A stretch of 64,000 nt of DNA from Cyanophora paradoxa CCMP329 (lineage: Eukaryota; Plantae; Glaucophyta), in the NCBI GenBank assembly GCA_004431415.1, contig QPMI01000144.1:10325-74324 (forward strand), written 5' to 3'. Shown one piece after another: positions 1-53,707 of the stretch (positions within the stretch are counted from its first letter, which is position 1; each line of letters starts with the position of its first letter). The notes beneath the pieces were generated by a model. It did no database searches, had not been told where the DNA came from, and was given only the letters and a program-made list of their open reading frames with translations. A program made the translations under genes and the position numbers.

Positions 1-166
1 ACGTCCCACTCACAACAAGAACAGTATCAATCTTTTTCGCATCATGCAGCTGTTTCAACCAATATTTCACACATTCTGACTTGCCTGTTGCAGACTTTCC
101 TATGAAAAGAGCACGAAATGGTGGGGTAATCATCTCAGATGCAACAAACTCCTCTAAATCGTTCAT
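1..166 (-). CDS. A32/FtsK-like DNA packaging ATPase, N-terminal part (runs off the window)
   Basis: Manual translation from ATG at 166 gives MNDLEEFVASEMITPPFRALFIGKSATGKSECV. It has a Walker A motif and aligns with VPFKALFISKSNSGKS of the ATPase at 39349-40092. Confidence 0.85.
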   Translation of the reverse strand, partial: MNDLEEFVASEMITPPFRALFIGKSATGKSECVKYWLKQLHDAKKIDTVLVVSGT

Positions 167-228
167 GGCTTTGTAGATCTTTCTTATTAAAGATAGATAA
201 AAATAACGAACTGTTACTGATCATGGTT

Positions 229-1602: not shown

Positions 1603-1656
1603 GATTATCTCTTTTATTATACTGCAACATAAAAAATTCACCAATGATCCTTGATT

Positions 1657-2666: not shown

Positions 2667-2694
2667 CTTCTTTTATCTATAAACATATATTAAA

Positions 2695-3626
2695 ATGATT
2701 CGGCTGGTCAATATAGATAGCAGAGACCGATCAGATGGACAAATAGAAAACTCCTACAAAGTTTCACTCACAACCCCAGTGACCAAACCAAGAGAATGTC
2801 GAGTTTTGTATGCAGAGATCCCCAACAGCATCTATAATTCCATTGGAACAGACCACCTTCTTCTCAGATTCTTCTACCAAGGCATCTCTGAAACCAAACA
2901 GGTCTTCCTTCTCCCAAGTGGTTATATTAATCAAGGGCATTTCGGGGTCACCAGTCCATATAATTATGGTCTGAATTTCACCTTTACTGGGAGCAACAAT
3001 CTCACATATGCATTCAAGGTCTACTACAATCCTACCTCCTACAAGTTGGAGTTTTACAGTAATGTTCAATTCGAATTGGTAGCATCTACACAGCGATTGG
3101 GTAAACTTCTTGGGGTGAGTTCTGTTGATTGGGTCGCTTCAATTGAGCAAACCTACGATTTCCCAGAGTCTGCAAGGTCTTTATATGCCCCAGAGAATTT
3201 CCTATATTTTGCAGGAGTACCAATCACCCCAAACCATCCCAATGGGGAATGACATTCACAGGATATGAATTCGAGGCATCTCGCTTAAACTACAAGTTAG
3301 AAGCAGCCAAGATGACAGATATGAATGCAGAACAGTACTTGTACATGCACATTAAAGAACTCTCCCCATTTGCTACAAACCACAATATTGTCCCACAATC
3401 TCAACCACAGAATCAAGGGGCGATTCTCAGATTGCAGTTAAGTAAAGATATTGGGCAGTATGTTTATCACAGTGGAGAGCACAGTGAATACATAAAAATA
3501 ACCGATCGAAACCTGGTGATTAGAGAGTTAACAGTTGAGTTTCGCGATTATTATGGTGATCTTGTTGATATGAATGGAATTGACAACTCATTCCAGTTGG
3601 AGTTTCTGGCTATTGGTAATGATTAA
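2695..3626 (+). CDS. Minor capsid/penton-like protein 2, element A (frameshift at the G-run near 3244)
   Basis: N-terminal IDSRDR...AEIPNS and C-terminal L.VEFRD..G..VDMNG motifs of PLV/NCLDV penton-like proteins. Homologous to 42572..43461. Confidence 0.7.
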
Positions 3627-5170: not shown

Positions 5171-5265
5171 ACACATATTGAAAAACGAATTTAAATCCAG
5201 AGTGAATCGAGATCGCGAAGCGATCGAGATGAACGAGGGATTTAAATTCGTTTTTCAATATGTGT
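5171..5265. repeat. Perfect 28-bp inverted repeat (hairpin) at the AT/GC boundary
   Basis: ACACATATTGAAAAACGAATTTAAATCC (5171-5198) and its exact reverse complement (5238-5265). Confidence 0.9.
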
Positions 5266-28989: not shown

Positions 28990-29076
28990 CTGAATTTAAT
29001 GCAAACGCGCGCATTTCAGCGTTTCAAAATCAAAAAAAGATTTTGCACACGTGCACGTGTGCAAGTATACGTCTAC

Positions 29077-29359
29077 TGTTGTAAAGGGGAGGACCCCCCC
29101 CCAAACCAGACCGCCCCCAAAGTCTGGTTTTACCTTCAGGGATCCACCCCTTCTAGCGTCATCAATTAGCGATTTTTCTGAGATCAGTTAGGCGTGTTAA
29201 TTAGGCGTGATGATGGACGAGCATGGATTTGAAGATTGGAAGGCGTGAGGGCGAGTGCATTTGGATCTGAGTAGAGAATATCGAGGGAGCTCTATCTAGG
29301 CGCTATCAGGGGCGACCTCCCAAGCGGTACGGGCCCCCAGAGCGGTCTGGTGCGGCCTC
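29077..29359 (+). repeat. Left terminal inverted repeat (283 bp)
   Basis: TGTTGTAAAGGGGAGG...GGTGCGGCCTC, exact reverse complement of 53415-53697 by manual comparison. Confidence 0.96.
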
Positions 29360-33162: not shown

Positions 33163-33526
33163 CGCTAGCACCGACGCCAGGCGAGCTCAGCAGCCTCGCC
33201 GGCAGTTGACAGCAGAGGAGCGCGCAGAGCGACTACTGAAGCGTAAGCGTAAGGCGCAGCACGAGCTCTGCCTAAAATTGAAAGCAGCTGGGGTTAGAGT
33301 GGCTGTGGTGGGAATCAGACGAGAAGATGGCGGCCACTATTTCACAGAGCTCGTCCGACTTCAGAGCAGTTTACAAGATGGTCACAAATCGTGAACACGA
33401 TCATGCTGGCCAGCCCTTGACCTCTCTTGCATGGCTTAGAGGTTTCCTGCATTCTATCTAGCAGTCAGAGATTGTTGCGCTGAAATCCGAAATTAATTTC
33501 AGTCCCTCTTCTTGGAAGCGCATGCA

Positions 33527-36500
33527 ATGGCCAGCACTGCAGCACTTAAGGCCGAACTTAGAAATTTAGCGACAGAACTTTATGATCGTGGATATGTTCA
33601 CGGGACATTTCGAAACAAACTGATGCGCCTAGCGGACGCTAGCAGCGGGACCTGGGGCCAAACGATTCGCAAATATATAGCGACACTGCTGCGACTGCGG
33701 AGCACGATTCGCCCAGCACGCCGCTTATATGAAGGCCAGCTCGCAGGCCATTTTGGCGCAATTGCAGCAGCTCGCGCAAACGCGGTTCAGGCCGAGGAGG
33801 CGATACTGGAGGACGTTCCTAATATATTTCAGGATGTTGAAGAAATTCCCGTGCCACAAGATCTGGATGGGGTGCTCTCTCACAGGCACCACCGCTATCC
33901 GAATTTACTATTCGATAAGCACGTATATGCAATCGAGCCCACCTACGATCCGGAGTCCGTAAAGAATTTAACTATCGACGTTCTGGGTCAACTGGGCATT
34001 GCAGAGATGATAGGGCGATTTGTGTTAATCCGGTTCCGCTTTGACAATAATCACATGTATACGACCCAGCTGATCCAAATAAGACAGAACGGGTTGCAGA
34101 GTTTGACTGAGAGTTTAGATGAGCGGATTGCGCAGTGGATGTCAGCACAAATGTCATATCAGGAGGACGATTTCTGGACGGTAACATCGATCGAGGTGTT
34201 AATTGCAGACAACGCGGCTGGCGCCCTAGGCAATGTTCCGAAATTGCCATTTTATCATAGGACAGTCGATAAGCTATACTGCCCGATGTCCCCAGCGAAT
34301 GACTGCGTGCTCGAATGCTTTGAGTACGTTAAATTAAATCCACGCGGACTGAGCCTGAAGACAGTAATCGAAAAGCTGGCAAAGGCACCCTATGCATCTA
34401 TTCGAGAGCGGCTCGGACTGGGAAAGGGCATGATATCTCTTGATCGCAGCACAGTAGAAGCAATCTGCGGATTTTATTCGATAGATACAACTGTGACGGA
34501 GTGGGCAAACACGAAATTCAAGGAGCTTTTTCGAACCCAGTTTGATTATTCGAAGCGTGCAATTCTCTGCAACATTGATGGGCATTGCTACCTGATTAAA
34601 AAGGAGGCGACACTAGGTCTGGAGCGGTGCCCTTGCTGCGGAAAGATGTTTGATTTGGCAACGCATGTGGAGCAATGCACGTTCTGCAATAACTGCAAAC
34701 GCGCGTACGACCCCAGAAAAGATCATTCATCAGAGTGCCAGGAGATGACGCGCCGTCAAAACGTGATCGGGCGGCAAATCAAGCCCTGCAAACCGGAGAC
34801 AGAATTTACAGCGTTGGACAGCGTTGTCTGCGCGGATTTTGAAACGTTTGCTGCCAACGGCAAGACGCACGTTCCATATGCTGTCAGCTATTGCACGATT
34901 GAAAAAGGGGAGGTCTCGCCATGCGAGTTAATTTATGGTGAGCAAACGTTGGACTTGTTCATGCGCTGGCTTGAGCGCCGCAGCGAAAAGACGACGTTGG
35001 TGTTCTACAATGGGTCTGGCTTTGACTATATATTTGTCTACAAATGGCTCGTGTTAAATCGACCGAATACAGCATTAAACGTTCTGCGGTCGAACGGCAA
35101 GATCAAGAATATGTCGTGGAAAACGGCTGCAGGCGGGCCTATAAGTACGTTTGATCCGTGCCTGCACATCCAGGCTTCGCTCAAACAGGCCTGCAAGGAC
35201 TACGGCTGCACTAACGTAAAGGGAGATTTTGATCATAGCAAGATTAAAACGTGGGAGGACGTTGAGCGCTTTAAATCTGAATGGGAGCCGTACGTGGAAG
35301 ACGACGTTAAGGCAATGACAGAGCTTTACATTAAATATTCGACAGCAGTCTTCGATCTGTACGGCTTAAACGTGAACACAACGCAAACAACCACAGCTTC
35401 GGCAATGGCGTTCCAGATTCATCGGCAGACGTTGATCAATCCAATTTCGCTACCGACCTACAAGGATGATCAGGTGCTGCGCCAGGCAATATATGGTGGA
35501 CGGTGTCTCCCATTTAAACGCAAATTCGTCTCATCGGGCCCGGATGATTATTTAGTCGACCTGGATGTTGTAAGCTTGTATCCGACGGCTATGTACGAGA
35601 ATTGGTTTCCAACTGGAAAGTACAAGCATATTACGTCGCCCGATGCGCTGGACAGATTCTGCAAGATATTACAATCGAATCAGCGTTCGTTGATGTTTAT
35701 TGCGTGCGTGGACGTGACAATTCCGCAAAATCTGCTGCTCTCTCCGCTGCCACGGCACGAATCTAATCTAGGCTGGTCTAATCTCAAGCCAATTGAGCGC
35801 GGTTGGTATACGTCAGTCGATATTAATCGTGCAATTAAACTGGGATGCGAGGTGACGAAGGTGCGCGAGGTCTACCTGTTTGACGGTAAAGATCAGATGT
35901 TTAAGACCTACATGGAGCGGATGTACTGCCAGAAAGCTAGATCTCGCAAGGGAACAGCTCCGTATGCGACGTCAAAGATTTACATGAATGGCCTTTACGG
36001 TAAATATTGCCAGCGGCCTGTGATCACAACCTCGGATCTGGTCACATCATACAAGCGATTTCGAGAAATTCAGCGATCAGCGCAGATCACAGACATTTCG
36101 ATCGAATCAGACACGCGGATGTTTGTCACGTACGAGATTGAGGAGTCCAAGCGTGATAGAGCTGTCACTAAACCGTGCTTTATTGGCGCATTTATTCTGT
36201 CATATTCGCGGGAGATCATGGACAGGTTTCTGATTGAAATAGGCGCATACTGGAGCATCGATGCAATGCCGTTTTATACTGATACGGACTCTTTGATTGT
36301 CCATCGAAAATACGCTGATCTGCTGCGGGCAAAAGGTTATATGAAGCCAGCATATGATATAGCGACGGCAACAGATGCGGACATTTGCAGGCAGGAACTA
36401 GGGAAACTTGACTGTGACATTAAAGGGCGGATTGTGGAAGCGTACTTCATTGGGCCGAAGCTTTATACGTGTTCATTTGTACGTGACAGCGACGCGCAGC

Positions 36501-36852
36501 TTGATCTGCATGTACGCGCAAAGGGGATTCCGCAATCGTGGATCCAGGAGCACTGGCTACCAGACGAACCAGAGGCGAGGAAAGGGGCCCTCGACCGCAG
36601 GATCGCTCTGGATGCTTACAGGTGCATGCTCGAGGATCCCACGTACCAACCCAAATGCACAATCGAATCAAAGCTGGCCCGTGTTTATAAACCGAACGGG
36701 CGGCAACGGAGAGCGGAATCAGCTTTAGTTCCATGATCCAAATTCCGTTCGCTCGACAGCTGAACAAGTCGCAGTATACAAAGCGCAAGATAATTTCGGA
36801 CGAATACTATAGTAGCGTCCCCCATGAGTACCGCGCAGGCGAGCCGAATTAA
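33527..36852 (+). CDS. polB: Protein-primed family B DNA polymerase (pPolB); frameshift near 36700
   Basis: ExoI ADFET, ExoII FYNGSGFD, ExoIII YVEDDV, DVVSLYP, KIYMNGLYGK and YTDTDS. The shifted frame supplies the expected tail YTKRKII...SSVPHEY, ending TAA at 36852. Confidence 0.95.
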
Positions 36853-38010
36853 GCAAGCTTATTACGATCCGGAAACTGGCTTTCAGTCTGCGGCGAGGAT
36901 AGCTAAGCGGCTCAATTTACCGCTATCAAGAGTGCAGGACGTACTTTCAAAATTGACGACTGCGCAGCGTTTTGCGAAACCTGTAAAGGAAAAGCCATCG
37001 ACCAGCATAATTTACGGGGAGCCCGAAAAGTACTACGAAGTCGATCTGATTGATGTGACCCGTACGCGAGAACTAATCGAGGGATTACTTTTATTATGAA
37101 CGGTATCGATGTGACGACGCGCAAAGCGTATAGCATCCCTATGAAGACGAAATCGGAAAGCACTCTGCTAGCCAGTTTGAAGAAATTGATTGATGCACTC
37201 CCCTCGAAGCCGGACGTCATTCAGACAGATCAGGAGTTCAAAGGAACCGCAGCAACAATGCTAGCGAGTATGGGCATCAAGCATAATGCAGTGGAGGCGC
37301 ATCGCCCGCAAGCAAACGGCAAAATAGAGAGATTTAATGGTACGCTTAAGCGCATCATTGCAAAGTACATGGATGCGTACGACACGGACAGATATATCGA
37401 TAAGCTGCCTGCTTTCTTGCGCAATTATAATTCGTCAGAGCATAGGTCAATTGGTACGTCGCCGAACGCTGCAGCAGAAAATCCGAAGGAGACAATTGCA
37501 CGCAACGACTACCAGAGAGAAGCGTACGAGCAACAGCACTATTTTGCCCAAGCGGAATTTAAGGTAGGCGATCGGGTGCGAGTGCAGCTAGAGCGGCAGC
37601 GTTTCGACAAGTCTTCAAAGCCGACGTATTCAAAAGAAATCTACACGATCACGGAGATAGGTGGCTTTGGGCCGCTGCTCAAATTTACGCTTTCGGGCTA
37701 CGACAAAGCGGTGACCTACCAGCGACTATTGAAAGTAGCGGCAGATTCAGAGGAACGTCGTGCGGGCAATGCAGCACAGCGGGCACAGCAGCGCAGGAAG
37801 AAAGAGATTAATCTAATGCAAGAGAATCTAGACAAGAGTGATATAGAGAGAGCGCGCAAACTCGAGCGTTTGCAGAAGCAATTGTTGACTGCAGGTAAAG
37901 AGAAGCTGAACCCAGGAGGGGCAACACAGAGATGGTATTCGTCGTTCCAGAATAAAACTGCAGCGTACTCAGCCCCTGGCAATACGCGAACTCTCCGCCC
38001 ACGCGCGTGA
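36824..38010 (+). CDS. int: Retroviral-like (rve/DDE) integrase of Polinton type; frameshift near 37060
   Basis: YYDP N-terminus, EVDLID, QTDQEF, NGKIERFNGTLK, YNSSEHRSIGTSP and FKVGDRVRV. ORFs 36824..37099 and 37096..38010 join with a one-base correction. Confidence 0.92.
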
Positions 38011-39348: not shown

Positions 39349-40092
39349 TTATGGTAAGATTTTAAAACGCTTCTTTTTGGGATGAACAGGCGTTGAATTT
39401 TCTTTCTTAGGCTCTTCTTGTCTTAGCCATTTAGTAAAACGAAAGCTCTTATCTTCAACGGCTTTATCAACGTACCAGGCCGTATCATACTTAGTTCCAT
39501 CCAGGACTAGGCACTGATAATCATGCGCCCAAGTCTCGAACAAGGCGATGAACTTATCTTTTGGGAGATGACTGAACTCTCTATAGATCGCCTCGAGCTC
39601 GGTATGATTAGAATAACTAAAGAAAAAGCAGTAATCGCTGTTTGATCTTATAGATTGACTAAGAGCTGTTAGCTTTTGCGTCATAAGAATCGTACTTATA
39701 TTAAAATGGCGGCCCTGCGTAAAAAGTCGATTTACAGCCTTGCTGTTTCGCAGATCAACAGTTTCAGAGGCGGCAACTAGATCGTCCAATACAAGCAATA
39801 TCTGCGGTGCTTTCTCTTTGTTTTCGATCAACTTTCGCTGTGAATCAATGATTTCTGCAACTATGGCGGGTTGAAAATCGTCGTAAAGCTCTTTAGTTAT
39901 TGCAGAGTATTCACCATTGAATTTGGTGGCAGTGAAAACGACGACTCGGTTGATCTTTGGATACAGCAGTCGAAGCAGATGCTTTGTGCAATAGAACGAT
40001 TTGCCGCTATTGGACTTCGATATAAATAGGGCTTTGAAAGGGACCCTCATGTCTCCCGGCTGGAACTGTGCGAGCTCTTGAGACTGATCCAT
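39349..40092 (-). CDS. A32-like DNA packaging ATPase
   Basis: Walker A SKSNSGKS, Walker B LLVLDD, and QGRHFNISTILMTQ...IRSNSDY. Likely start MDQSQ at 40092. Confidence 0.92.
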   Translation of the reverse strand: MDQSQELAQFQPGDMRVPFKALFISKSNSGKSFYCTKHLLRLLYPKINRVVVFTATKFNGEYSAITKELYDDFQPAIVAEIIDSQRKLIENKEKAPQILLVLDDLVAASETVDLRNSKAVNRLFTQGRHFNISTILMTQKLTALSQSIRSNSDYCFFFSYSNHTELEAIYREFSHLPKDKFIALFETWAHDYQCLVLDGTKYDTAWYVDKAVEDKSFRFTKWLRQEEPKKENSTPVHPKKKRFKILP

Positions 40093-40154
40093 CAAAAAAT
40101 TAACTACCGAGATTCGCAGGCGCAGCCAAGGCAGCTTGTCTGACGACACTTCGA

Positions 40155-41543
40155 CTAGAGGTTCACCTTGCGAAGGCCCGCAGCATCAACAATTAGGACA
40201 GTGTGCAGGAGAGCGCGAACCTGGACGTAAATCTTGTTGTTTGCATCGTAAGCGGCAGGATTCATGATATTCAGGAAGCAGCTGCTGCTGTTGGTGAGAT
40301 CCACGAAACCAGTTTGAGCTGCATTTCGGATCGATTTATCCCCACTAATGCAAAATGGCAATCCACTCAGGACATATCTGTTAAGAGGCGCGTCGAGATT
40401 TGAGCACTTGAACACATCAGCAATGAGCTCAGCACCTTGCAAGAGTGGCACAGGCTCGTTAGAATAAAGTCGCTGGCCATTCAATTCGCAGGAAATAGTT
40501 ATGTCACGAGCATTGGCCTCAGTTTTAAGGACACTGTGTTTTCCATCAGTTTGGTTCATATTTGTCTGCTTGCGAATGCTAACAAAAAGGCCATAGCAGA
40601 GCCCACTGATCTGCGACAGATTAATCCGTGTAGGTGCACCAGCCCCTGCATAGGTGATCGAGTCAGCATCAACCCAGCCAACCTCAGTGGCAGGAATGGC
40701 GATTCCAGACGATTTGACTTTTTCAATAACCTGTGCAAAAGTAGCCTCATCAACGTTGATGCAGTGAGCTATAATCTTTGGATTCGATAGCTCGGGATTG
40801 GCAGGAGTGACAGTGAGGACATTGGGGGTTATATTCTGGCCAATGTTTGCAGGGGATGCAGCGGCAGCTCCTACGCTCCCAAGTCCATCATCTTTAGAGG
40901 CATCACCGTTTGCGGCATATTCTGCTACAAACCTACCACCATAGCTGGTCTCAACGAAGCCCTGGGCACGGTCACGGAACCAAACCTCCACAGACACCTC
41001 GCCCGATAGCGCACCAATTGGAAGCACTGAGCCCTCCCAGGGACAGGGGATCTTTACACTGAAAATACCTCCAGCACGATTGCTCCCCTGAGGTGGTGTT
41101 CCATGAAGCCAGCCACCGGATCGGTACTTCTTTTTAAGCTGAGCATCATCATTGAAAATCAGAGCGCTGTGAACAAGCCAGTCCTCGGGGACAATGTAGC
41201 TGTAGGAAGCATATTTGATTTCGATTCGCTTTACGAGAGCACCAACCGATCGCAAATAACCAGTGCGAACCAGGTCAGTGTCACCAGTAAATGCGGTCAG
41301 CTCTGGAAGGGTAAACTGGAGTTCGAGCCCCTGAAGGAAATTGTAGCGGGGCAGGAAATAAGTAACCCTCTTTCCGAAGCAGTCTCCATAGTCATTGCTT
41401 GGGTTGACAACAACACGCACAGGCTTTGTTTGGCTGGTTAGACCTAACATAAGCTCATTGTTCATGAAAAAGTCCTTAGCTTCCTGCGGAGTTGTCAGGA
41501 GCTCTTTGAGACCGAGTCGCTGCAAGTTTTGGGTAACATCCAT
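40155..41543 (-). CDS. Major capsid protein (probable double jelly-roll), element B
   Basis: 462 aa, most conserved gene between elements A and B. FGKRVTYFLPR...LELQFTLP and LPIGALSGEVSVEVWFR recall NCLDV-type capsid N-terminal motifs. Confidence 0.82.
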   Translation of the reverse strand: MDVTQNLQRLGLKELLTTPQEAKDFFMNNELMLGLTSQTKPVRVVVNPSNDYGDCFGKRVTYFLPRYNFLQGLELQFTLPELTAFTGDTDLVRTGYLRSVGALVKRIEIKYASYSYIVPEDWLVHSALIFNDDAQLKKKYRSGGWLHGTPPQGSNRAGGIFSVKIPCPWEGSVLPIGALSGEVSVEVWFRDRAQGFVETSYGGRFVAEYAANGDASKDDGLGSVGAAAASPANIGQNITPNVLTVTPANPELSNPKIIAHCINVDEATFAQVIEKVKSSGIAIPATEVGWVDADSITYAGAGAPTRINLSQISGLCYGLFVSIRKQTNMNQTDGKHSVLKTEANARDITISCELNGQRLYSNEPVPLLQGAELIADVFKCSNLDAPLNRYVLSGLPFCISGDKSIRNAAQTGFVDLTNSSSCFLNIMNPAAYDANNKIYVQVRALLHTVLIVDAAGLRKVNL

Positions 41544-41587
41544 CGAAGTATATAATTGCAGTGAAAGAAAATAATTTGGGACTTAGC

Positions 41588-42544
41588 TCAATTTGACGAA
41601 TTGATCCAAGGATATGTCTTCGATCTTTTCTGGAGCTGAAGCTTGGCGAGCTCGTAGACAACATCACCATTGGGTTCATCTGGGCCATAACGAATTTCGA
41701 GTATAAATGAGACAGGACCTCCATTTAAATCAGCAATTCGCTGCATAAAATCGTAAATCTCAATAGTCACAGAGTAGAGGTCCAGCTTTGAATAAATATA
41801 CTTGTACAAAGGATGTGCTTCAGTTGAATCATAGTATGCTATCTCGCCTGGACGAAGGACGCTTGGAATGCTCAGCTTTGAGAAGAAGCCAGGTATTGAC
41901 GTGTTCGGCATACTGACAAGGTCACCAATTTCAGGAATGCGTAGGAGCACATGATCATCGGGAGTGACATCAGGCTCATAAGCGCCTGCTATATATTCAG
42001 TATTTATAGATAATGTCTTTGACCGAATCGGTAGAATTGATCGCAGCCCTAGAAGCTTTGCAGTTCGCTGAGCCCTTGCAACGGCCTGGTAGTTTCTGAC
42101 TTCCCGCCCACCCTGGTTCGTTGGCAACATCAGAGCAATAAAGAACTCGAAGTTAGCTGTGAACCCTATTAATTTGATCGCTGAATTATACGTGCACGTG
42201 ATACCTGTTCCCGTCAACCTTTCGTTTATCTCTGTCACAAGCGAGGTGACGTCGTAATTTCCAGGTGGAATTGCAATGTTATTCCACGCTCCAAAGCCGG
42301 CCTGAGGTGGGTCGGGTCCTTCATTAGTAGGATCATATTTGCACCAATATATGTAGGTGTCAAAGACCAAATCCTCTGCTGGATCGAGTACATCAATTGT
42401 GCTCATTGTGTTGGGGATCTCAGCTGATACCAAGCGCACGGCTTTCACATCCTGATAAACTTTAGGCAGTCTTACTTTAAATTTCGAGGTGGATGTCAGC
42501 TCCTCCGCTTGGTGACTTGCAATGCAGACGTAGTCCGTAGGCAT
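41588..42544 (-). CDS. Minor capsid/penton-like protein 1
   Basis: VRLVSAEIPNT, IPPGNY and DLNG...FILEI motifs; adjacent to MCP. Confidence 0.75.
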   Translation of the reverse strand: MPTDYVCIASHQAEELTSTSKFKVRLPKVYQDVKAVRLVSAEIPNTMSTIDVLDPAEDLVFDTYIYWCKYDPTNEGPDPPQAGFGAWNNIAIPPGNYDVTSLVTEINERLTGTGITCTYNSAIKLIGFTANFEFFIALMLPTNQGGREVRNYQAVARAQRTAKLLGLRSILPIRSKTLSINTEYIAGAYEPDVTPDDHVLLRIPEIGDLVSMPNTSIPGFFSKLSIPSVLRPGEIAYYDSTEAHPLYKYIYSKLDLYSVTIEIYDFMQRIADLNGGPVSFILEIRYGPDEPNGDVVYELAKLQLQKRSKTYPWINSSN

Positions 42545-42571
42545 CTTTTTTATATCAGTTAGAGAATAAAA

Positions 42572-43461
42572 ATGCGGCTTACCTTTGACAGCAGAGACAG
42601 AAGGCCAATCGATTCCGAGGCAAACTTTGTGCTCGAAATCAATGAACCTATAATCAATCCAGTTGCTGTTCGACTTACCCAGTGTGAGTTCGCAAACAGC
42701 CTTTACACCAGCATTAAAGATGAGTATCTTTCGATCACCTTTCCCTACATTGGGACAGAAAATCTGGCGGTTTTTGAGCCTGGCATAATTACTACTGCAA
42801 ATCTGGGCGAAACAGATATTTATAACTTTGGCCTATCGTTTAATATTAGGCTAGAAGGGATCTCAATCGCATATTTCAAATTGTTTCGAGACCCAGAGAC
42901 GTTGAAAATGTCTGCCTATTGCAGCCGTTCCTGCACACTGACCTGCCAGTTCAAAGCTCTATCGAATCTGCTTGGGCTGAACCGAAATGAGTCTCTCCAG
43001 CTGTCTCCTATCGTGCTTGAAGGGGGCAAAGACCAGCAACTGCAGCTGAGCGGTATCTCGAGGTTGCTGGCATTCCAGTTACACCTGCTCACCCTGAGTA
43101 CGGCATTGATTTCACCGGAAGAATGCGGAGTGAGCCACTTGGTTATGCTGTCGAATTTCCAAAGATAATCGACATGAACAGCGACCAGTACCTCTTCCTT
43201 GTCTGCGAAGAGCTACGGCCATTTGCTTCAAAGCTTCGCCGCGGGGCCAAAACAATGTGCAATTATGGGCTCGCTCGAATTCAAATGAGCCAGGACGTTG
43301 GCAAGTTCGTTTATATAAATCAGGAAAATGACGGCGAGTGGATCCCCATCGAAGAGCGCCTAGTGCTGACCTCTTTGCGACTGCGCATTGTCGACAGAGA
43401 TGGTGATGACGTCTCTCTGAATGGCCTGCCATGGTCTGGTGAACTGCAATTTTTAGTTTAG
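42572..43461 (+). CDS. Minor capsid/penton-like protein 2 (frameshift at the G-run near 43022)
   Basis: FDSRDR, CEFANS and LRLRIVDRDG..VSLNG. The corrected frame reads YLEVAGIPVTPAHP, matching FLYFAGVPITPNHP in element A. Confidence 0.72.
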
Positions 43462-44937
43462 GTAACGTCCCCGGAAATCAAGCCGGAACGCATTCACATT
43501 TATAAATTCGTTTGTTATAATTTGCACATAGTTATAAACCTGTGGGGTGATCAAATGCGAGTCACTATGCATTAGATCAAAGCCTGTCATAGATGGGTTT
43601 GCAGCAAGCACATTTGCTAGGACCGTATTCTCAAATAGTGACCCGTCTCGTAAATATCCTAAGTTGGTCAGAATGCTGAAATTAAATAGGACTCCGGCAG
43701 CAAAGGCTGGCCCATACATAATGATTTGATGTAGCTCAAAAGGCTTTGGAAATTCGACTCTGATCCAGGGATTAGGTAGAGTGCCACCTTGGAACCCTGT
43801 TGAGTTGGGTCGCACATGAGAAGGTGGGTGCAATTCCTCAAAGTCGTTGCTTATGATGTTTGCATCTGGAATTATAAACCAGTTTACATCAAATGGCGGC
43901 TCAACTGTTAAAGTAGACGATATGATTAGTCTCTCATCGTTCAGTAGGTCGTAGTTCGCCAATAGAAAGCTGCAGAGTGCATTTATTTTAGCATTTATTT
44001 CGATTTGTTTCAGCCATAAATCTGTTGTGGAAATCAAATAAGAAATATTCGATGGGGAGGCATCATCAAGCTTGCTCATGACTGCAGCTGGCAGCGGAAC
44101 ACTTAAACGCCAGTATCTAGTTAGATTCCTATCTGCATCAACTGGAAGCAGTTCCTGCATTTGAAAGTGCGATTCCAGCTCGCTACCTGACATTAGCATA
44201 GAAATGATTGGGCTGCCTGAGAGGGATAGGATCCAGCCCAGAGCGCCCCAGCCTGACGTCTCCGAATTCGAAAAGCCTGCAGTCAATTGCTCACTGGCTT
44301 GGACCTCACCACAGCTAATGCTCACAAGAACAATTGGATCTTCTGCATCGTAAATTTTACTGGCGTGGCTGAGTGCAGCAACTGAGGGATTATTCAAACA
44401 GGCTATCGCCCCGTCAACAAGGTTTTTGTCCCCTAGAACCTTCGGTGGAAAGAATGTAGGCGCTGCAGAAGATGCTCTCACTGCATCACGAATCAGCGTG
44501 CTTGAATATGGCCCATCCTTCGTAAAAACTACTGGCTGCATCCGAACTGTATCAAACGCTGTAATTAATACGTCTTTTGTCGATTCTGCAATTGTGTAGT
44601 CCAGGGCAACGTCTGTAAGCACCGACTCCAGAGGATTTGCATCATAGCGGCTTCCTGAGAGCAAGCTTGTCAGTGATCTTGGATTTGCAAATATTGTTGG
44701 CAGGTTCGTTTGATATAGACTCAAGATATCACCTGCAGAATATCGGTAAGCAAGAACAGAGCCTGGAGTTGATGGGATCGCCAATCCGGCCGCTATTATT
44801 GCCCCTGTTGAGGTGCCTGCAAAGAAATCAAACAGCTGTGGTATTGCTTTCCCAGTAATCGCCTCAATCCGCTGTAGAATTCGGGCTATGACTATTCCAC
44901 GAGCACCTCCACCTGATAGTGAGAGAATGACCTTCAT
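43453..44937 (-). CDS. Patatin-like phospholipase with a C-terminal extension
   Basis: SGGGARG oxyanion loop, GTSTG nucleophile, ASSAAPTFF and DGA catalytic Asp. Likely start MKVIL at 44937. Confidence 0.92.
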   Translation of the reverse strand: MKVILSLSGGGARGIVIARILQRIEAITGKAIPQLFDFFAGTSTGAIIAAGLAIPSTPGSVLAYRYSAGDILSLYQTNLPTIFANPRSLTSLLSGSRYDANPLESVLTDVALDYTIAESTKDVLITAFDTVRMQPVVFTKDGPYSSTLIRDAVRASSAAPTFFPPKVLGDKNLVDGAIACLNNPSVAALSHASKIYDAEDPIVLVSISCGEVQASEQLTAGFSNSETSGWGALGWILSLSGSPIISMLMSGSELESHFQMQELLPVDADRNLTRYWRLSVPLPAAVMSKLDDASPSNISYLISTTDLWLKQIEINAKINALCSFLLANYDLLNDERLIISSTLTVEPPFDVNWFIIPDANIISNDFEELHPPSHVRPNSTGFQGGTLPNPWIRVEFPKPFELHQIIMYGPAFAAGVLFNFSILTNLGYLRDGSLFENTVLANVLAANPSMTGFDLMHSDSHLITPQVYNYVQIITNEFINVNAFRLDFRGRYLN

Positions 44938-45052
44938 TTTTAAAAGGGGGCTTATATAAAAATGTCCTACATCTTGAAGAAGCCAGTGCCACTTCGTAAA
45001 GCTCCAGATTTTGTGGATGATCGGCATATAAATATTCGCGTATTTGGGAGTA

Positions 45053-45679: not shown

Positions 45680-48600
45680 ATGTCTTATCTCCTGAGAAAG
45701 CCTGTGCCTCTGCGACGGCCACCAGAATCGCCTGAAGAGGATAGGCTCATTAATATTCGCGTTTTCGGAAGCATTTTGGCTGACTACAATGCTGACAAAG
45801 ATATACACCAGACCGAGTTTAATCGCCCAGCTGCGTTAATTCTGCGCAACTCACATGTTGGCGCCCCGGACATTGCACAGAGATTTTGTCTAGGTCCAGC
45901 TGAGAACTATGTTGCTGAAATAATTGGATCCAGGGCGTTGCCGCGGCACCTGCGAATTGCCTCCTCAGGCACTGTTTCCAAGTATGATTCTGGTAGATTA
46001 ATCTTTAGGCTCCAAAATGATAGAGGGGTCCACACATCAGCTCTACGCCTAATTGATGAATCCAATGCTGTCACAAACAAGACTGCGGCTCACATTACAG
46101 GGCGAATTCTCCTTGGCGAAGATGCAGGAATATCAGTGCTAGCATCACAAATCCAGCCGTTTCCCTGGGATTTACTTTTTACAGCTGCACGAGAAGCAAA
46201 TATTTTATACGGTTTTGATGTAAATCAAATCGATACCGAGCCAGCCACCAGGTTAGATATTCCTGGATGCACCTTTGGCTCGATCCTGATGGAAGCTGAT
46301 AGGCACCTGCTCCCGGCGTTGCATGACAGCTACGATCTTGGGCTCCGCACCAGGCAGTGGCGAAATATTCACGGCACGTCGATTTACCAAGATGGAAAAA
46401 GGTCATCACTGAACCGGAGATAATAAACATTTTCAACTACTACTTCGGACCTATTGTCCCTATACCACCTATACCACCTCTTCCAGGGCTACCGAAGCCA
46501 AACCCTGAAGGGCCAGGTCGTGAGAGAGTTGCAGATGAAACAATTCCATTCGGGCAAAATATTATTTCGTGGGAGGCTGTCAGGAATCGCCCCGTGATAG
46601 AACGCTATAAGCATCCGCATGAAGAATACCTGCCGCCTGATATTGAAGTTTTCCCGCTCGAAATGTACACAGAGCCTGAAGAGCAGTTACTTCCTGATGG
46701 CTTAGATGTTCAAGAACTCCAGTACGAGCAACCTGTGATTCCACATGAGCAGCTGCTTCCAGACGGCTTTGAACCTATTCTCTTCCCTTGGAGTTCACCG
46801 TAGATTGGGAATCAATAACCAATAAACCTGGGAGTTTTCCACCAGAGGAACACAGGCATGATTGGGATGAAATCGATAATAAACCGTTGCGGTTTCCCCC
46901 AGAGGATCACAGACATGATTGGGCTGAGATCGATAATAAGCCTTTACGGTTCCCCCCAGAGGATCATAGACACGACTGGGGTGACCTTGATAATGTTCCG
47001 CTTGAATTTCCACCGGAAGATCACAGACACATTTGGAGCGAAATAGATGAGCAGCCCGAGTTCGCAAAGATTGAGCTTCCTGTCACACTAGCTGTCTCTC
47101 TCTACAAATCAATTAACACCCCTGAAAGGTTATATTTGAATGACCACTATGTCCACAGGCAGGGAATTCGTGCTAACACTGACATGTCAGGCTCTTTGTT
47201 TGTAAGGATTCCCCGTGGAATGGAGATAGTTGCTGCTGGCGGGAATATTGGTTTGCAGGACACGTTCCCAAGTATTTATGTCACAAACTACTACGCCTCT
47301 GACATCGAAATGACATCTGTTCTACCTTTTTTGCCTTCACTGCCGTTGGATCCTCTCTCCCATGCTGATTTTCATTCTGCAATCCAGATTAATGTAACAG
47401 ATGTTAGCGATTTAGATTCATCGAGACCGAAATTAGTTTTTAGCCGTGAACGCCTTTTACCCAATGCTCTGATAGGAAATCGAGATGATTATAAGAAATG
47501 CGAAATAGCATGGATAAAAACGAACTATAACGGTGGAGTTGGGGAGGGCATTTTAGAAATTAATCAGAGGGCAGCAGCAAAAAACATTCACAACGAGACT
47601 ATATCCAGAGTGGTCACAGAGGATTACCTTCAAGCCCAAAATTATGTAGATGAAACAGAGCTCGCTTTAGTTATTGCAGGTCTAGCTGTGACAGGGAATT
47701 ACCTGCCCTTGACAGGAGGAACTATTGACGGAACAGTGACTGCTGACAACTTTTTTGTTCACACTGAAAGTGATCAGACCTTCCCTGTGGTTCACCCAGG
47801 AGCTGAGTACGAGATTCCTATTGATCCTGCTATTATGCCCATAAAAATCGATCTCCCTTCCGATTATGTTGGACGGGGTGAACTGAAAATAATCTCTTTC
47901 ACAGGAGATTATAATGATCTTTTAAACAAGCCTACTGCTGAGAACCTTCACCCTGTTGCCTATTCAGGAAATTTCCTCCATTTAAATAATAGGGCACACA
48001 CCCACACAAAGGCTGAGATCACAGATTTTGCACACACTCACACGAAGTCCCAAATAACAGATTTTGCACACACCCATACCCGAGCAGATATAACTAATTT
48101 CGCTCACACCCATGTTAAATCAGAGATAACTGATCTTGGGAATGTTGCTTATGTTGGTCATACCCATACCAAGGCAGAGATTACAGACCTGGGAAATGTA
48201 TCGTACGTTGGTCATACCCATGATTGGAATACTGATATCTATAACAAACCGGCGTTGTTCTCAGGCAACTACAACGATCTGACCAATAGACCCACTCTTG
48301 ATCCCTTCACAGCCACCACTATCAGAGCCAATAATACAATGTATGTAGGATCAGGTCAGATTGTAGAACCAGCAGGGCCTATGTTTGAAGAAACATGGTT
48401 CTTCCACAATTCGCAGAATTACTTTGATAAAACCTTACTTGTTCGTGGAAATGCCTATGCAAGAAATTTCTATGCTATGAACCCCTCAAATAATGCGACC
48501 ATCAGTCGATGTATTACAGAGGCAGATCTTTCCAGTCAACTCAATGCATATTTTAATGGGAAAATTCAAGCAGGGAAGTATGTTTACACTACTCCCGTTT

Positions 48601-48854
48601 TAGATTACAATAATCTCTATGTGTTCAATCTAACTATCTATTTTACCAATGCCTTTGCTTCTCCTCCTGTTGTGACAGCAACAGTAAGGCATGAAGGACA
48701 AGATCCAAATTATCAATTAACTCCCGTCGTTTTTACTGTGAACCTGTTGAATGTTTATAGTAACTATTTTACTTGTGAACTTTTCACTGATCCATATGCA
48801 ATGATTAATTCATCCAAAACTGTTACAATTCATTACATTGCTGTCGCAATTTAA
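45680..48854 (+). CDS. Long phage-like tail-fibre protein (three ORFs joined over frameshifts near 46398 and 46787)
   Basis: Four HRH(D/I)W.(E/D)(I/L)D..P..F repeats, six HTH...I repeats (HTHTKAEITDFA type), GxYNDLxNxP twice, YLPLTGGTIDG, and a C-terminal FTNAFASPPVVTAT (H-type lectin/gp53-like). Joining the three ORFs is an inference. Confidence 0.75.
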
Positions 48855-48873
48855 CTGTTTGGTAATTATAAAG

Positions 48874-49875
48874 ATGACATCTGTATTAGAAATCCCGAAT
48901 TATGAATTAGCAGCCAAATCACTGCATAGCACCTCTCATGAAGTAGTTGATTCTACACCTGGGAATATCTGCACCGAAACAGCAAGCAATACCTCCTTAA
49001 CCGAAACCAATATTTTGAGAGTCAAAGAAATACGCTGTGACCGAAATGGAGGCAAGATACGAACTACAGGTATTATTATTTCGAATAAAAATCAGGTTCA
49101 AGCAGGTCAAGTAGTCCCTGATTCAGCAGTTTATGATAACGTGGGTGGATTCACCACGGCAAAGATCGTAACTTTCGATAACACAAGCAATAACTCCGCT
49201 CTTGTGGTTAAGAGTGGTGGAGCCTATATTGGTGACGGAGCGATTGTAGTGGGGACTGTCACAGCAAATCAATTAAACGTGAGTGGTACATGCATTTTCA
49301 GTTCTTTGATGACTTTTAACTATGGCCTTTTAGGTAACATAATTTATGGGACTCTTCAGGCATTTCTGAGAGTTCAAGCACCCGAAATTGGTAGTGGAAC
49401 AGATTCCAACATGAGCTACAAACGAAATGGTAATGCAATTGTCACTCTTGAAAAAACGACGGTAGCAGAGATAGAGATAAACTCATTCACACTTTCCCCA
49501 ACTTGCTATTTGAAAAGGACTTATTGCCCAAGATTTTGTGTCACAAAACTATTACCTAATCAGGCAGCATCATCCTCATCATGGTCATCTGGCGTCCGTA
49601 TTACCTTCACAGTTCCTAATTTCGCTACTTATTATGTCAACAATGAAGGCAACTGGAATGATTCGTATATATTTACTGCACCTGTTGCAGGTGTTTACCG
49701 GGTTTTTTTCACAGCTCTCAGAATAGATACTCAGACTTCTTATGTGACTATCTTAAAGCTTTCAATAAATGGAATTGCATCCGATTACGAATTTCAATGT
49801 TCATTAACGGGACAAATGGCTATCACATACGAAACTTTACTTACTCTTAACATGGGGACAATGTTGGAGTATTAA
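48874..49875 (+). CDS. Fibre paralog 1 with a C1q-like head
   Basis: Shared N-module (PG.ICTE...KEIRCDRNGGK.RTT) and FTAPVAGVY. The true C-terminus probably extends to ~49945 past a G-run frameshift. Confidence 0.7.
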   Translation: MTSVLEIPNYELAAKSLHSTSHEVVDSTPGNICTETASNTSLTETNILRVKEIRCDRNGGKIRTTGIIISNKNQVQAGQVVPDSAVYDNVGGFTTAKIVTFDNTSNNSALVVKSGGAYIGDGAIVVGTVTANQLNVSGTCIFSSLMTFNYGLLGNIIYGTLQAFLRVQAPEIGSGTDSNMSYKRNGNAIVTLEKTTVAEIEINSFTLSPTCYLKRTYCPRFCVTKLLPNQAASSSSWSSGVRITFTVPNFATYYVNNEGNWNDSYIFTAPVAGVYRVFFTALRIDTQTSYVTILKLSINGIASDYEFQCSLTGQMAITYETLLTLNMGTMLEY

Positions 49876-49967
49876 ACTCAACAGGTGTTACCATCACTAT
49901 TAGCACACGCTGTTACTTGGGTGCTATCTCGTAAGTGCTATATAATATTGTCTGTGTAATATAAAGA

Positions 49968-50993
49968 ATGGCTACTCAAATAGCAGTCCCTGTTTTCTGT
50001 TACGCTGCACCGAAAATTCATCAACTCAACCACACTGTAACAGATGCAACTCCGGGTTTTATTTGCACAGAAACAACAGGAGCAGATTCATTTTCGCAGA
50101 ACTCTTTGATTCGATGCAAGGAAATCCGGTGTGATCGCAATGGGGGCAAAGTGAGAACCACAGGTCTCATCGTTTCGAACAAGAACCAAGTTCAATCAGG
50201 ACAGATCGTTTCTGATTCCGCAATCTATGATGATGTGGGAGGGTTCACCACACCCAAGATTGTTACGTTTGATAACACAAGTAATAATTCTGCTCTTGTC
50301 GTGAAAAGTGGAGGTGCTTACATCGGAGATGGTGCGAGGATTGATGGAAACCTTACAGCTGAGCAACTCACAGTAACAGGAACGACTACTTTTAATAACT
50401 TAGTAACAGCTAATGGTGGTGTGTATGTCCCTGGTGCTCAGCAGTCTATTGTGACAGCAACTACCAAAATTGTTACACCCGAAGTAGATACAGGTTCGAG
50501 CTCAAATCTTCTCTTGAAACGCAATAGTAATCTCATGGCGACACTGGAAGCCAATAGTCTCACTCTAAATACAGGTTGTTACTTCAAGTACGATTTTCAA
50601 CCTCGATTCTGCGCACAACTTGGTTACACACATGTTGCTTCAAGTGCTGCTCCTCTGATCAACTGGACAACAGTTTTTATAGACAACAGAGGTGCCTTCA
50701 ATACAGGCAATGGAAGATATACAGCTCCTGTTGCAGGACATTACAGATTAACTGTAAATTCTTCCTCAACATCTTCAACAGCTGTAAGTCTGACTTTGCA
50801 GGTAAACGATACTAACCCTGGTGGTCTGACCATCTTCACATCTGGAACTTCAACTACAATTGCAGCGAAACCTCTATATATCAACGTTATACTCAATCTT
50901 GCTGCCGGAGAATATGTCACAATTGTCACAGGAACAGCTGGTAGTTATGCAAGTCGAACAACATTTACAGCTGAACTTCTAAGTATCACATAA
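49968..50993 (+). CDS. Fibre paralog 2 with a C1q-like head
   Basis: Same N-module; FNTGNGRYTAPVAGHY...LNLAAGEYV is a C1q/TNF-like signature. Confidence 0.78.
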   Translation: MATQIAVPVFCYAAPKIHQLNHTVTDATPGFICTETTGADSFSQNSLIRCKEIRCDRNGGKVRTTGLIVSNKNQVQSGQIVSDSAIYDDVGGFTTPKIVTFDNTSNNSALVVKSGGAYIGDGARIDGNLTAEQLTVTGTTTFNNLVTANGGVYVPGAQQSIVTATTKIVTPEVDTGSSSNLLLKRNSNLMATLEANSLTLNTGCYFKYDFQPRFCAQLGYTHVASSAAPLINWTTVFIDNRGAFNTGNGRYTAPVAGHYRLTVNSSSTSSTAVSLTLQVNDTNPGGLTIFTSGTSTTIAAKPLYINVILNLAAGEYVTIVTGTAGSYASRTTFTAELLSIT

Positions 50994-51015
50994 ATTTTCT
51001 CTCTATAATGTAGGA

Positions 51016-51282
51016 ATGTCGAATATCTACCAAGTGGTTCTCTCAGATACTGAGAAGTTGGGAATGGAATATTGTGCTGCTTCTGTTCAGGATTGGATTG
51101 ATAATGTCGTTCATAACAGGGCAAGAATTGCAATTGATGAGATTGTTCAGAAAGAAATTCAATCTTGCATCTCATCAGGAGTTCAAATACCAACCTCAAA
51201 GGAAGCCATTGTGTCACAGGCATTCCAAAGGGGAACTGTAAAGAAAGGCATCGAGTATAATAATGTCACAGAAGAGCAGTGA
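51016..51282 (+). CDS. Small phage-like tail-fibre-associated protein
   Basis: LSDTE...MEY.A..VQDWIDNVVHNRARIAIDEI resembles small proteins I recall next to fibre genes in aquatic tailed phages; from memory, not a search. Confidence 0.55.
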   Translation: MSNIYQVVLSDTEKLGMEYCAASVQDWIDNVVHNRARIAIDEIVQKEIQSCISSGVQIPTSKEAIVSQAFQRGTVKKGIEYNNVTEEQ

Positions 51283-51330
51283 AGCTATAGCTTGTCTGCA
51301 GCCTATTTTTTTCTCTCGCATTTCTATCAA

Positions 51331-52178
51331 ATGACCGAGTACAATCGGGTTCAGCTACCTATCTACTCACTGGGCTCCCCAGCCATCCATATGAGGCAGC
51401 ATGAAGTTAGCGATGCTATTGCGGATTAGAGTCCACTGAGCGTCCAAACTCAACTAATGCATTTGATCAACGATCTGTGATTCGGTGTAAAGAATTGCGC
51501 GCAGATAAAAACTCTGGGGTTGTAAAAACAACGCGATTATTAGTCACTAATGCAAATTTTTCCCAGCCCATAACAGGGGGAGTTGATTCGTACAGTGTTG
51601 ACCTCCGAAGCATAAACTATGATCAAAACACTGCTGCCCTCACTGTGCGCTCCGGGGGAGCAGCTATTACTGGAGCTTGCCGTGTTAGTGGAGGACTATC
51701 ATCATCGATTGCCATCAATGATGTTCCAGACTTTTCATTAGAGAATGTCGAAAATCGTAAACGAGTTCGAATGTACTTACCTTGCTGTGACCTCCCCTAT
51801 GCACAAGCTCTAGTAGAAGTTGAGATAACCATAGCAAATTCAAGTACACCAAATGGTCTGGATGGTGAGAGGTTGCTTTCAAACAGAGAAATACCGAAGG
51901 CACTTCAATCACTCTGTCAGGATCAAAATGATCAGATAGGGCATGTGTATACGTTCTTTGTGCAAGGTCTTGGGCATGCTGGCCGGGGATACGTAGTTCG
52001 TAATATCAATACAAGGCATCTTTTCGATTTATATGCTACCGCTATAGGCAGATATTCTATCCTAATAATCGGATATCGCTCCGATGTAGCTGCATCAGCG
52101 GCCACTAGAGGACTGAACCCTGATCCAGCACTCAATAATATGTATGAGGAGAACAATCCAGAAAATCCTATAGCTTGA
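51331..52178 (+). CDS. Fibre paralog 3 (frameshift near 51423)
   Basis: ATG 51331 MTEYNRVQLP...QHEVSD joins GLESTE...IRCKELRADKNSGVVKTT; parallels 52207..53040. Confidence 0.68.
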
Positions 52179-52206
52179 GTGAAAGTTTTATCTTCTGTTT
52201 TCTAAA

Positions 52207-53040
52207 ATGGAAGCTGTTGAAAGAATTGTTGTTCCCTCTTTGACACTAGCAGCCCCAGCAAATCACGTCCTCCAGCATGCTGTCTCAGACGACGTGCCTG
52301 GTCTGCAATCAACTGAGCAGCAGCCAACTCTAAATACCTTCCGGGAGAATCACATATTACGTTTAGGCGAGGTTCGATGCGACAAAAATAATGGGACAAT
52401 AAAAACAACAAGTCTCCTTGTAACCAATGCAAACTTTAATTCAAATTATGGGGATCCTGATAGCTATGACGATGCTAATAAGGTCAATACTTTTACCTTT
52501 GAATCAAGAACAGGTGCCGTCACCTGCAGATTTGGAGGTGCTTATATTGGCGATGGTCTGAGAGTAGGCGGCGCTGCTTGTGCTCCTATATTTGTTAATG
52601 ATCAACCTAACCCTGAAAACACAAATGAAAGAATTCGAACCTATGTGCCTTCTATGAATTCGCCTTACATTATTAAACTATTCACCCTAAACATAAATGA
52701 GCAAACATCGATTGTAGATAACGTTCAGCCACTCGGAAATCATTTCAAGAGTGTTGTTGATATTCCCCCGGATGTCTACTTCCTTTGTAGAAGGAATGAT
52801 GCTCTCCGGCCAAACATAGCTGTTTTGATCAATCCTATCGATAATTTTGGTGTCGCTTTCCATTCGACTCCAGTTGGGGTTGAAGATTACCAGTTTATTG
52901 TGAGGGCCACGCTAATGGGTGCCTACAAAATTATTCTATTTGCTGAAAGAACAGATGTGATTGCAAGCGGGGTCAAGTATGGTGAGACCTTCAATTCGAA
53001 TCGTTACTTTCCAATTGGAGGGGCTGATCCCAACCCATAG
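52207..53040 (+). CDS. Fibre paralog 4
   Basis: QHAVSDDVPGLQSTE...GEVRCDKNNGTIKTT...GGAYIGDG N-module with a non-C1q C-terminus. Confidence 0.72.
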   Translation: MEAVERIVVPSLTLAAPANHVLQHAVSDDVPGLQSTEQQPTLNTFRENHILRLGEVRCDKNNGTIKTTSLLVTNANFNSNYGDPDSYDDANKVNTFTFESRTGAVTCRFGGAYIGDGLRVGGAACAPIFVNDQPNPENTNERIRTYVPSMNSPYIIKLFTLNINEQTSIVDNVQPLGNHFKSVVDIPPDVYFLCRRNDALRPNIAVLINPIDNFGVAFHSTPVGVEDYQFIVRATLMGAYKIILFAERTDVIASGVKYGETFNSNRYFPIGGADPNP

Positions 53041-53073: not shown

Positions 53074-53478
53074 ATGGATCTGCTCCGTAAATGCATGGAC
53101 ATGTTCCATCTCAACGTCACCAGCAAATTGAAATGCAGTTGCTGCGAGACAACTATCAACCTCGAAATATCTGACACTGAGGGCTCACGCACCCCTGATA
53201 CTCAGCTATCGCCTAATAACACACCCGGACTTCTAGGTCCAATTCTCCTTTTACGCGATCTGATTCACCTATACCATGGCTTGATTCTGAAAGCCGAAGA
53301 TCGTCTTGGCCACCCCAAATATCCCGAAGCCCCTGAAAAGAAAGAAGTCCTTGCTATCAAGTTTCAGAAAGGAGAAGACTCCAGTTGCCGAAAAGCAACC
53401 AGATCAAGTGGAATGAGGCCGCACCAGACCGCTCTGGGGGCCCGTACCGCTTGGGAGGTCGCCCCTGATAGCGCCTAG
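53074..53478 (+). CDS. Small hypothetical viral protein with a CSCC motif
   Basis: ATG ORF after the fibre cassette; as assembled it runs into the right TIR, so the end is doubtful. Confidence 0.4.
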   Translation: MDLLRKCMDMFHLNVTSKLKCSCCETTINLEISDTEGSRTPDTQLSPNNTPGLLGPILLLRDLIHLYHGLILKAEDRLGHPKYPEAPEKKEVLAIKFQKGEDSSCRKATRSSGMRPHQTALGARTAWEVAPDSA

Positions 53479-53697
53479 ATAGAGCTCCCTCGATATTCTC
53501 TACTCAGATCCAAATGCACTCGCCCTCACGCCTTCCAATCTTCAAATCCATGCTCGTCCATCATCACGCCTAATTAACACGCCTAACTGATCTCAGAAAA
53601 ATCGCTAATTGATGACGCTAGAAGGGGTGGATCCCTGAAGGTAAAACCAGACTTTGGGGGCGGTCTGGTTTGGGGGGGGGTCCTCCCCTTTACAACA
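53415..53697 (-). repeat. Right terminal inverted repeat (283 bp)
   Basis: Reverse complement of 29077-29359; followed by GTCTAC. Confidence 0.96.
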
Positions 53698-53707
53698 GTC
53701 TACGCAC

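Follow-up and report, generated by a model that had tools for sequence, protein, structure and literature searches.

Two penton-type genes, one of them putative, stand head to head in a Polinton-like virus integrated in the genome of Cyanophora paradoxa

Particles that use two penton-type proteins have so far been resolved only in PBCV-1 and PR772, and the two differ in arrangement. In PBCV-1, the protein P1 occupies eleven vertices, and the pentamer at the unique vertex consists of a variant, P1v1, which has a crown insertion and a bridging helix; the two share ~10% identity and nearly identical jelly rolls (Shao et al. 2022, PMC9617893). In PR772, each penton is built from three P5 N-domains and two copies of P31 (Reddy et al. 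2019, PMC6750898). For Polinton-like viruses, annotation lists a single minor capsid protein (mCP), and full icosahedral symmetry is assumed for the particle. Here we describe two related elements, el1 and el2, in a 64,000-nt stretch of Cyanophora paradoxa CCMP329 (contig QPMI01000144.1, positions 10,325 to 74,324; hereafter the window), in which the gene for a predicted penton protein, penton1, is joined by a divergently oriented second gene, penton2, whose product is probably a penton-type jelly roll as well. Penton2 is thus likely to be a second, diverged penton encoded in the same genome. The setting differs from that of PBCV-1, which is a giant virus, whereas el2 is a 24.6-kb element with a protein-primed DNA polymerase B (pPolB) and an integrase, and the penton genes lie 27–28 bp apart in both elements. 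With PR772 and PRD1 the locus would share the encoding of two penton-type jelly rolls by one small membrane-type double jelly-roll virus, but P5 includes a fibre and a receptor-binding head of its own, whereas the proteins of the element have no fibre parts and are barely alike.

In both elements, the genes for the packaging ATPase, the major capsid protein (MCP) and penton1 lie on the minus strand, and the second gene diverges from penton1 (Table 1). An earlier reading made from the DNA letters alone (the sequence-only reading) had reported that the two penton genes diverge from these very short spacers, next to the MCP and ATPase genes. This layout was confirmed, each spacer lying between divergent ATG codons. 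El1 is cut by the start of the window, and its ATPase N-terminus, MCP, penton1 and penton2 follow each other in the same order as in el2. Between the two elements, amino-acid identity is 56% for MCP, 33–38% for penton1 and 28–37% for penton2; synonymous sites are saturated, and the proportion of nonsynonymous differences (pN) is below that of synonymous differences (pS) in all three genes, with pN of 0.44–0.51 against pS of 0.75–0.82 in both penton genes. By these measures el1 and el2 are old relatives and not recent copies of one another, and because they are so deeply diverged, the head-to-head layout reflects conserved synteny and not a recent duplication. The el2 spacer is made up of two A-rich 12-nt leaders and 3 further nt, examples of such leaders at the two penton genes being GATATAAAAAAG-ATG and TAGAGAATAAAA-ATG. 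In the 12 nt upstream of the start codon, 12 el2 genes have a mean A fraction of 0.44, compared with 0.28 in 749 background ATGs, a richness that was reached in 1 of 20,000 resamples. The A-rich leader may be a promoter or leader signal, and since the spacer holds just two such leaders and 3 nt, either the promoters must overlap the adjacent coding regions or the leaders are very short. At its other end in el2, penton2 meets a patatin-like phospholipase gene that converges on it, the two 3′ ends overlapping by 9 nt.

The assignment of penton1 is based on its predicted fold. We modelled the el2 protein with AlphaFold2 (AF2; 7 alignment rows, pLDDT 59.7, pTM 0.45) and aligned the model to 48,161 PDB representatives without a prefilter, upon which the top seven matches were all pentons, the closest being the PBCV-1 penton. 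Foldseek against BFVD returned 57 matches at E <= 1e-3, among them giant-virus proteins annotated as ‘putative minor capsid’ and DUF5901 proteins, the minor capsid proteins of mavirus and Qinghai Lake virophage, adomavirus LO5 and a MELD-virus penton. Language-model features from Atlas likewise placed penton1 with the Sputnik V18/19 and DUF5901 families. By sequence, neither penton1 nor the penton profile matched any PDB entry, and a homologue search for penton1 retained none of 1332 candidates. Tetraselmis viridis virus S1 (TVS1) contributed two distinct proteins to the BFVD matches of the penton1 model, at ranks 4 and 8, and this double match suggests that a second penton may be a feature of a wider group than the el1/el2 family.

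The likeness of penton2 to penton1 was found by profile alignment. Specifically, hhalign aligned the N half of penton2 to penton1 residues 6–49 (E 5.4e-4; score 30.5 compared with 13.2 +/- 2.4 in 100 column shuffles, maximum 21.8) and the C half to penton1 residues 192–284 (E 2.2e-4; score 32.9 compared with 13.2 +/- 2.7 in 100 column shuffles, maximum 22.3). Two independent halves, each ~7 standard deviations above its shuffles, match the corresponding ends of penton1 in order, and these residue ranges form the strand-rich ends of the penton1 model. When penton2 was read through its frame breaks, with X at each break, the alignment to penton1 ran end to end over 244 columns (score 31.5 compared with 14.3 +/- 2.3, maximum 22.2 in 183 shuffles). 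In Atlas, the named clusters nearest to the C half were Sputnik V18/19 (0.94) and DUF5901 (0.90). Penton2, at ~296 aa, is close in length to penton1, and neither protein contains repeats, a fibre domain or a Pfam domain, the fibres being encoded by separate genes; a search for homologues of the penton2 open reading frame (ORF) among 5.8 billion clustered proteins retained none of 105 candidates. Taken together, these indirect but consistent observations make it likely that penton2 is a penton-type jelly roll. The statement of the sequence-only reading that the elements carry two penton-like paralogs therefore stands for penton1 by fold and, for penton2, extends as far as profile alignment and language-model features reach.

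As to the integrity of the second gene, the earlier reading was right about its position, but penton2 is not one open frame in either window copy. In el2, the frame shifts from 0 to 2 at a G run, and in el1 it breaks near 3237; penton1 of el1 is also broken in the window, near 2070. All three breaks (2070, 3237 and 43021–43026) are 0-to-2 shifts at or beside short homopolymer runs, and short-read contigs from three of three DNA runs contain one extra base at each of them. The contigs with the extra base account for 47%, 100% and 100% of the depth at 2070, for 28–46% at 3237 and, with 3, 4 and 3 contigs in the three runs, for 31%, 41% and 66% at 43021–43025. Because these contigs carry a base that restores the frame, intact forms are present in the organism. 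At 2070, some of the contigs with the extra base are 171 nt long and otherwise identical to the window, and this break looks like an assembly error, whereas the breaks at 3237 and 43021–43026 may be either assembly deletions or copy-specific mutations in a multi-copy family. The element family consists of many diverged copies in the organism: each DNA run yields 328 to 845 contigs that match el2 at 90–100% identity, and the genes at 40155–43461 and 1600–3700 are each covered in runs X1, X2 and X15 by hundreds of short contigs per run, at the same identity and at very high word depth. One run that may be of RNA, but equally of DNA, shows contigs of low depth over the 5′ portions of the two penton genes and is given no weight. 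Two other accounts of the penton2 breaks were rejected. An intron was considered for a GTGAGT...CAG stretch at ~3115–3214 of el1, but its removal leaves the frames unjoined and el2 has no counterpart, and a programmed −1 frameshift does not fit break sites that differ between el1 and el2, nor other copies with one more base.

We favour, with a probability of about 0.4, the reading in which penton2, like P1v1 of PBCV-1, assembles into a variant pentamer of its own at a single special corner. Penton2 would fold as a jelly roll, be part of the virion and form its own pentamer at a unique vertex used for packaging or delivery, with penton1 at the other eleven, and the short AT-rich spacer would switch both genes on together, such that the two vertex proteins are made simultaneously. 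Consistent with this, the head-to-head pair has been kept in two lineages despite an MCP identity of only 56% between them, and frame-restoring variants of it occur in the short-read data of every DNA run. We prefer the PBCV-1 pattern to a mixed pentamer because both proteins would be whole pentons without fibre parts, are barely alike and have chlorovirus proteins as their fold relatives. A number of observations nevertheless count against it. The AF2 models of MCP and penton1 are both middling (pLDDT 63 and 60, pTM 0.63 and 0.45, from 10 and 7 alignment rows), the hhalign local probabilities for penton2 are only 30–45% with profiles of 2–3 sequences, the Atlas recognition values of 2167 and 1663 fall below the 2300 mark, and BLASTP detects no similarity between penton1 and penton2. 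Neither window copy has an intact penton2 frame, and at the el2 break 34–69% of contig depth per run lacks the extra base, in keeping with which some genomic copies of penton2 may be truly frameshifted. Finally, the literature examined describes no unique vertex for Polinton-like viruses, and the PR772 heteropentamer is an equally real precedent (PMC6750898).

A heteropentamer takes up the idea of the sequence-only reading, a heteromeric or double vertex suited to several fibres. On this view penton1 and penton2 would co-assemble in every corner, and the mixed pentamers would resolve the 5-to-3 symmetry mismatch with trimeric fibres. Besides the PR772 precedent (PMC6750898), it can draw on the 27–28 bp between the divergent genes, which makes co-expression likely, and on the five fibre-like genes of the element, four of which share a common N-terminal region. 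We nonetheless judge it rather unlikely: P5 of PR772 is a penton domain fused to a fibre, whereas both proteins here are ~300 aa without fibre repeats and neither penton1 nor penton2 shows a penton domain fused to a fibre or spike; P31 closely resembles the P5 N-domain in sequence, a likeness for which BLASTP finds no parallel between penton1 and penton2; and PBCV-1, the closest fold relative, keeps its two pentons in separate pentamers (PMC9617893). We give still less weight to an off-axis position, where penton2 would be a jelly-roll structural protein away from the five-fold axis, either a minor capsid protein that acts as cement or an adaptor between fibre and capsomer. Such a role would suit a protein that shares only its jelly-roll ends with penton1 and differs from it in the length and sequence of the middle, and also the BFVD matches to the penton1 model, which include several proteins per giant virus (three in CroV), more than the vertex alone could account for; a penton-type protein is favoured, however, by the V18/19-type features and by an alignment to penton1 that is collinear over its whole length, and nothing positively supports another location. 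Least probable is that penton2 has no relation to pentons or is a functionless gene in decay, with chance or composition behind the profile matches and truly broken frames, since the interrupted frames of both window copies, the lack of homologues or any Pfam match and the hhalign probabilities below 50% are set against two halves that each match penton1 well beyond their shuffles, a gene position kept while the MCPs came to differ by 44%, pN below pS, frame-restoring variants in all DNA runs, and breaks that lie in short homopolymer runs at different sites in el1 and el2.

The capsid module was examined for a relationship to giant viruses, which the sequence-only reading had derived from two motifs in the MCP. 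Both motifs are present, but no sequence method (PDB, Pfam) showed the likeness to giant-virus MCPs. The window MCP had no Pfam match and no PDB match by sequence or by profile, and none of the 10 members of the MCP family reached the gathering score of Capsid_NCLDV (PF04451); one of them, P0008, gave the best, sub-threshold match (E 0.012, 15.8 bits compared with a cut-off of 34.8). The family is very sparse: among 1.84 billion representatives, 8 homologues were found at E <= 1e-3, one of which (P0004) is repetitive and was judged spurious, and none was found in IMG/VR, with the MCP alignment, P0008 and P0006 as queries, or in JGI metagenome contigs. The nearest database MCP is a EukProt protein labelled Cyanophora paradoxa, with 65% identity. 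The predicted fold, by contrast, is a double jelly roll with Foldseek and VIA matches to giant-virus MCPs, the next figures being 16.5 for PRD1 P3, 15.2 for STIV, 14.0 for mavirus, 13.5 for Sputnik, 13.1 for PM2 and 11.7 for hexon. Against BFVD, ranks 1–29 comprised 20 named proteins, all giant-virus MCPs, and 9 unnamed ones, and the first named others were a Sputnik-like virophage at rank 30, Qinghai Lake virophage at 39, an adintovirus at 41 and mavirus at 50. Among double jelly-roll lineages, the model thus resembles the MCPs of giant viruses most, which supports an MCP that is giant-virus-like at the level of fold, within the middling confidence of the model. The PDB holds no Polinton or Polinton-like capsid structure, and the comparison with canonical Polintons therefore rests on one adintovirus entry in BFVD, with a TMq of 0.45 compared with 0.5–0.6 for the giant-virus MCPs. 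The broader claim of the earlier reading, that the structural module is closer to giant viruses than to canonical Polintons, is accordingly borne out by the predicted folds of MCP and penton1 and not by sequence methods.

A wider proposal can be put forward tentatively, as one we hold less likely than not: that this is a small Polinton-like virus with pPolB and integrase whose unique vertex is genetically specified and has its own penton variant, that its MCP and penton correspond, in a small virus, to the capsid module of giant viruses, and that the design predates or parallels gigantism and is widespread but overlooked. A continuum from small viruses to Nucleocytoviricota has already been proposed (10.64898/2026.06.19.733378). 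If penton2 is what it seems, conservation of a second penton gene would imply that the corners are mixed or that one of them is special by design, which bears on how DNA is packaged and delivered and on how several fibres are attached, and it would add a structural character linking some Polinton-like viruses to giant viruses. It would also give annotators a concrete gene to seek, and provide a small tractable system for an arrangement otherwise resolved in the two viruses introduced above.

The element as such is of a known kind, because its nearest MCP comes from Cyanophora paradoxa and Polinton-like and adinto-like sequences of that alga are in print: Polinton-like viruses from this species have been published (PMC12220804), and its data sets are reported to contain contigs with adinto-like PolB and integrase (PMC8502044). 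Element type, host group and giant-virus-like capsids in small viruses are, in other words, all in print. Literature searches found no Polinton, Polinton-like virus or virophage described as having a pair of penton or mCP paralogs; passages of Yutin 2015, Bellas 2023, a Tetraselmis preprint and two 2026 preprints each refer to one mCP and mention no second penton gene.

The window contains two stretches of ~45% GC within surrounding DNA of 65–78% GC, the second of which is el2, a complete element (29070–53704) integrated in a GC-rich eukaryotic genome. Its borders and gene set, shown directly, make it a 24.6-kb integrated Polinton-like virus. A double jelly-roll MCP and a single jelly-roll penton, both predicted, together with an A32/FtsK-type ATPase, are the marks of a Polinton or Polinton-like virus, and pPolB, a retroviral-type (rve) integrase and terminal inverted repeats (TIRs) are those of a Polinton in the strict sense. 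Because the TIRs are nearly perfectly complementary, the insertion of el2 is suggested to be recent.

Table 1. Features of el2 and el1, in window coordinates.
Element	Feature	Position	Strand	Description or evidence
el2	Left TIR	29070..29359		290 nt, 99% complementary to 53415-53704
el2	pPolB	33512..36736	+	Pfam DNA_pol_B_2 (PF03175), E 2.2e-50
el2	rve integrase	37096..38010	+	Pfam rve_3, E 1.4e-8
el2	A32-like DNA-packaging ATPase	39349..40149	-	Pfam Pox_A32, E 2.8e-9, above cut-off
el2	MCP	40155..41543	-	462 aa, predicted double jelly roll
el2	Penton1	41588..42544	-	318 aa, predicted single jelly-roll penton protein
el2	Spacer	42545..42571		27 bp, AT-rich, between two divergent start codons
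el2	Penton2, N-terminal part	42572..43024	+	151 codons, first frame
el2	G run	43022..43026	+	Site of the penton2 frame break, 0 to 2
el2	Penton2, C-terminal part	43027..43461	+	144 codons, second frame
el2	Patatin-like phospholipase	43453..45027	-	Pfam Patatin, E 8.1e-26
el2	Fibre gene block	46788..53040	+	Pfam PTR and C1q; tblastn cross-matches
el2	Right TIR	53415..53704		
el1	ATPase N-terminus	2..196	-	Cut by window edge; tblastn, 36% identity, E 2e-5
el1	MCP	229..1602	-	56% identical to el2 MCP
el1	Penton1	1657..2666	-	Frame broken near 2070 in the window
el1	Spacer	2667..2694		28 bp
el1	Penton2	2695..3626	+	Frame broken near 3237 in the window

Among described groups, the algal Polinton-like viruses (TVS1/TsV group; Yutin et al. 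2015, PMC4642659) share with el2 the module of MCP, mCP and A32 ATPase as well as fibre genes, a lipase, TIRs and integration in a protist genome, but one mCP is annotated per genome there, compared with the two penton-type genes here, and el2 differs further in combining its sparse MCP family with pPolB and an rve integrase. Maverick/Polintons and adintoviruses resemble el2 in pPolB, rve integrase, TIRs, A32 ATPase and jelly-roll capsid genes. El2 departs from them in its putative second penton-type gene and in that its MCP model lies farther from the one adintovirus entry in BFVD than from giant-virus MCPs. Pfam found no protease family among the 25 ORFs scanned, neither a cysteine protease nor the adenain-type maturation protease that most Maverick/Polintons carry, a search that diverged proteases could escape. 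Mriyaviruses, ‘Zoravirus’ and related clusters likewise combine a genome of Polinton-like size with Nucleocytoviricota-related capsids (Bellas & Sommaruga 2026, 10.64898/2026.06.19.733378); the contrast is one of gene content, with VLTF3, Mriya48 and often an HUH endonuclease there, none of which Pfam detected here, and pPolB and integrase in el2.

The fibre block of el2 opens with a phage-tail-repeat (PTR) protein (46788–48854), followed by four paralogs at 48838–49875, 49968–50993, 51477–52178 and 52207–53040 (345, 341, 233 and 277 aa). The four share an N-terminal region of ~120–260 aa at 33–49% identity and differ in their C-terminal parts, one carrying a C1q/BclA-like head, and they look like alternative fibres that would share one capsid-attachment end. 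A gene for an HNH-AP2 nuclease is listed between the patatin-like lipase and the fibre genes, and the lipase itself extends ~300 residues beyond its patatin domain without a Pfam match. Between the integrase and ATPase genes, two ORFs overlap on opposite strands: the first (38464–38820, plus strand) has an ExoX-like_C motif slightly below the cut-off (E 6e-6), and the second (38548–39339, minus strand, 263 aa) has no match. El1 seems to stop shortly past penton2, and from near 5240 the DNA is of high GC with a 750-aa proline-rich ORF. On the host side adjoining el2, an ORF at 27037–28134 on the minus strand has, as judged by eye only, an alanine- and glutamate-rich coiled-coil-like region followed by a cysteine-rich, RING-finger-like end.

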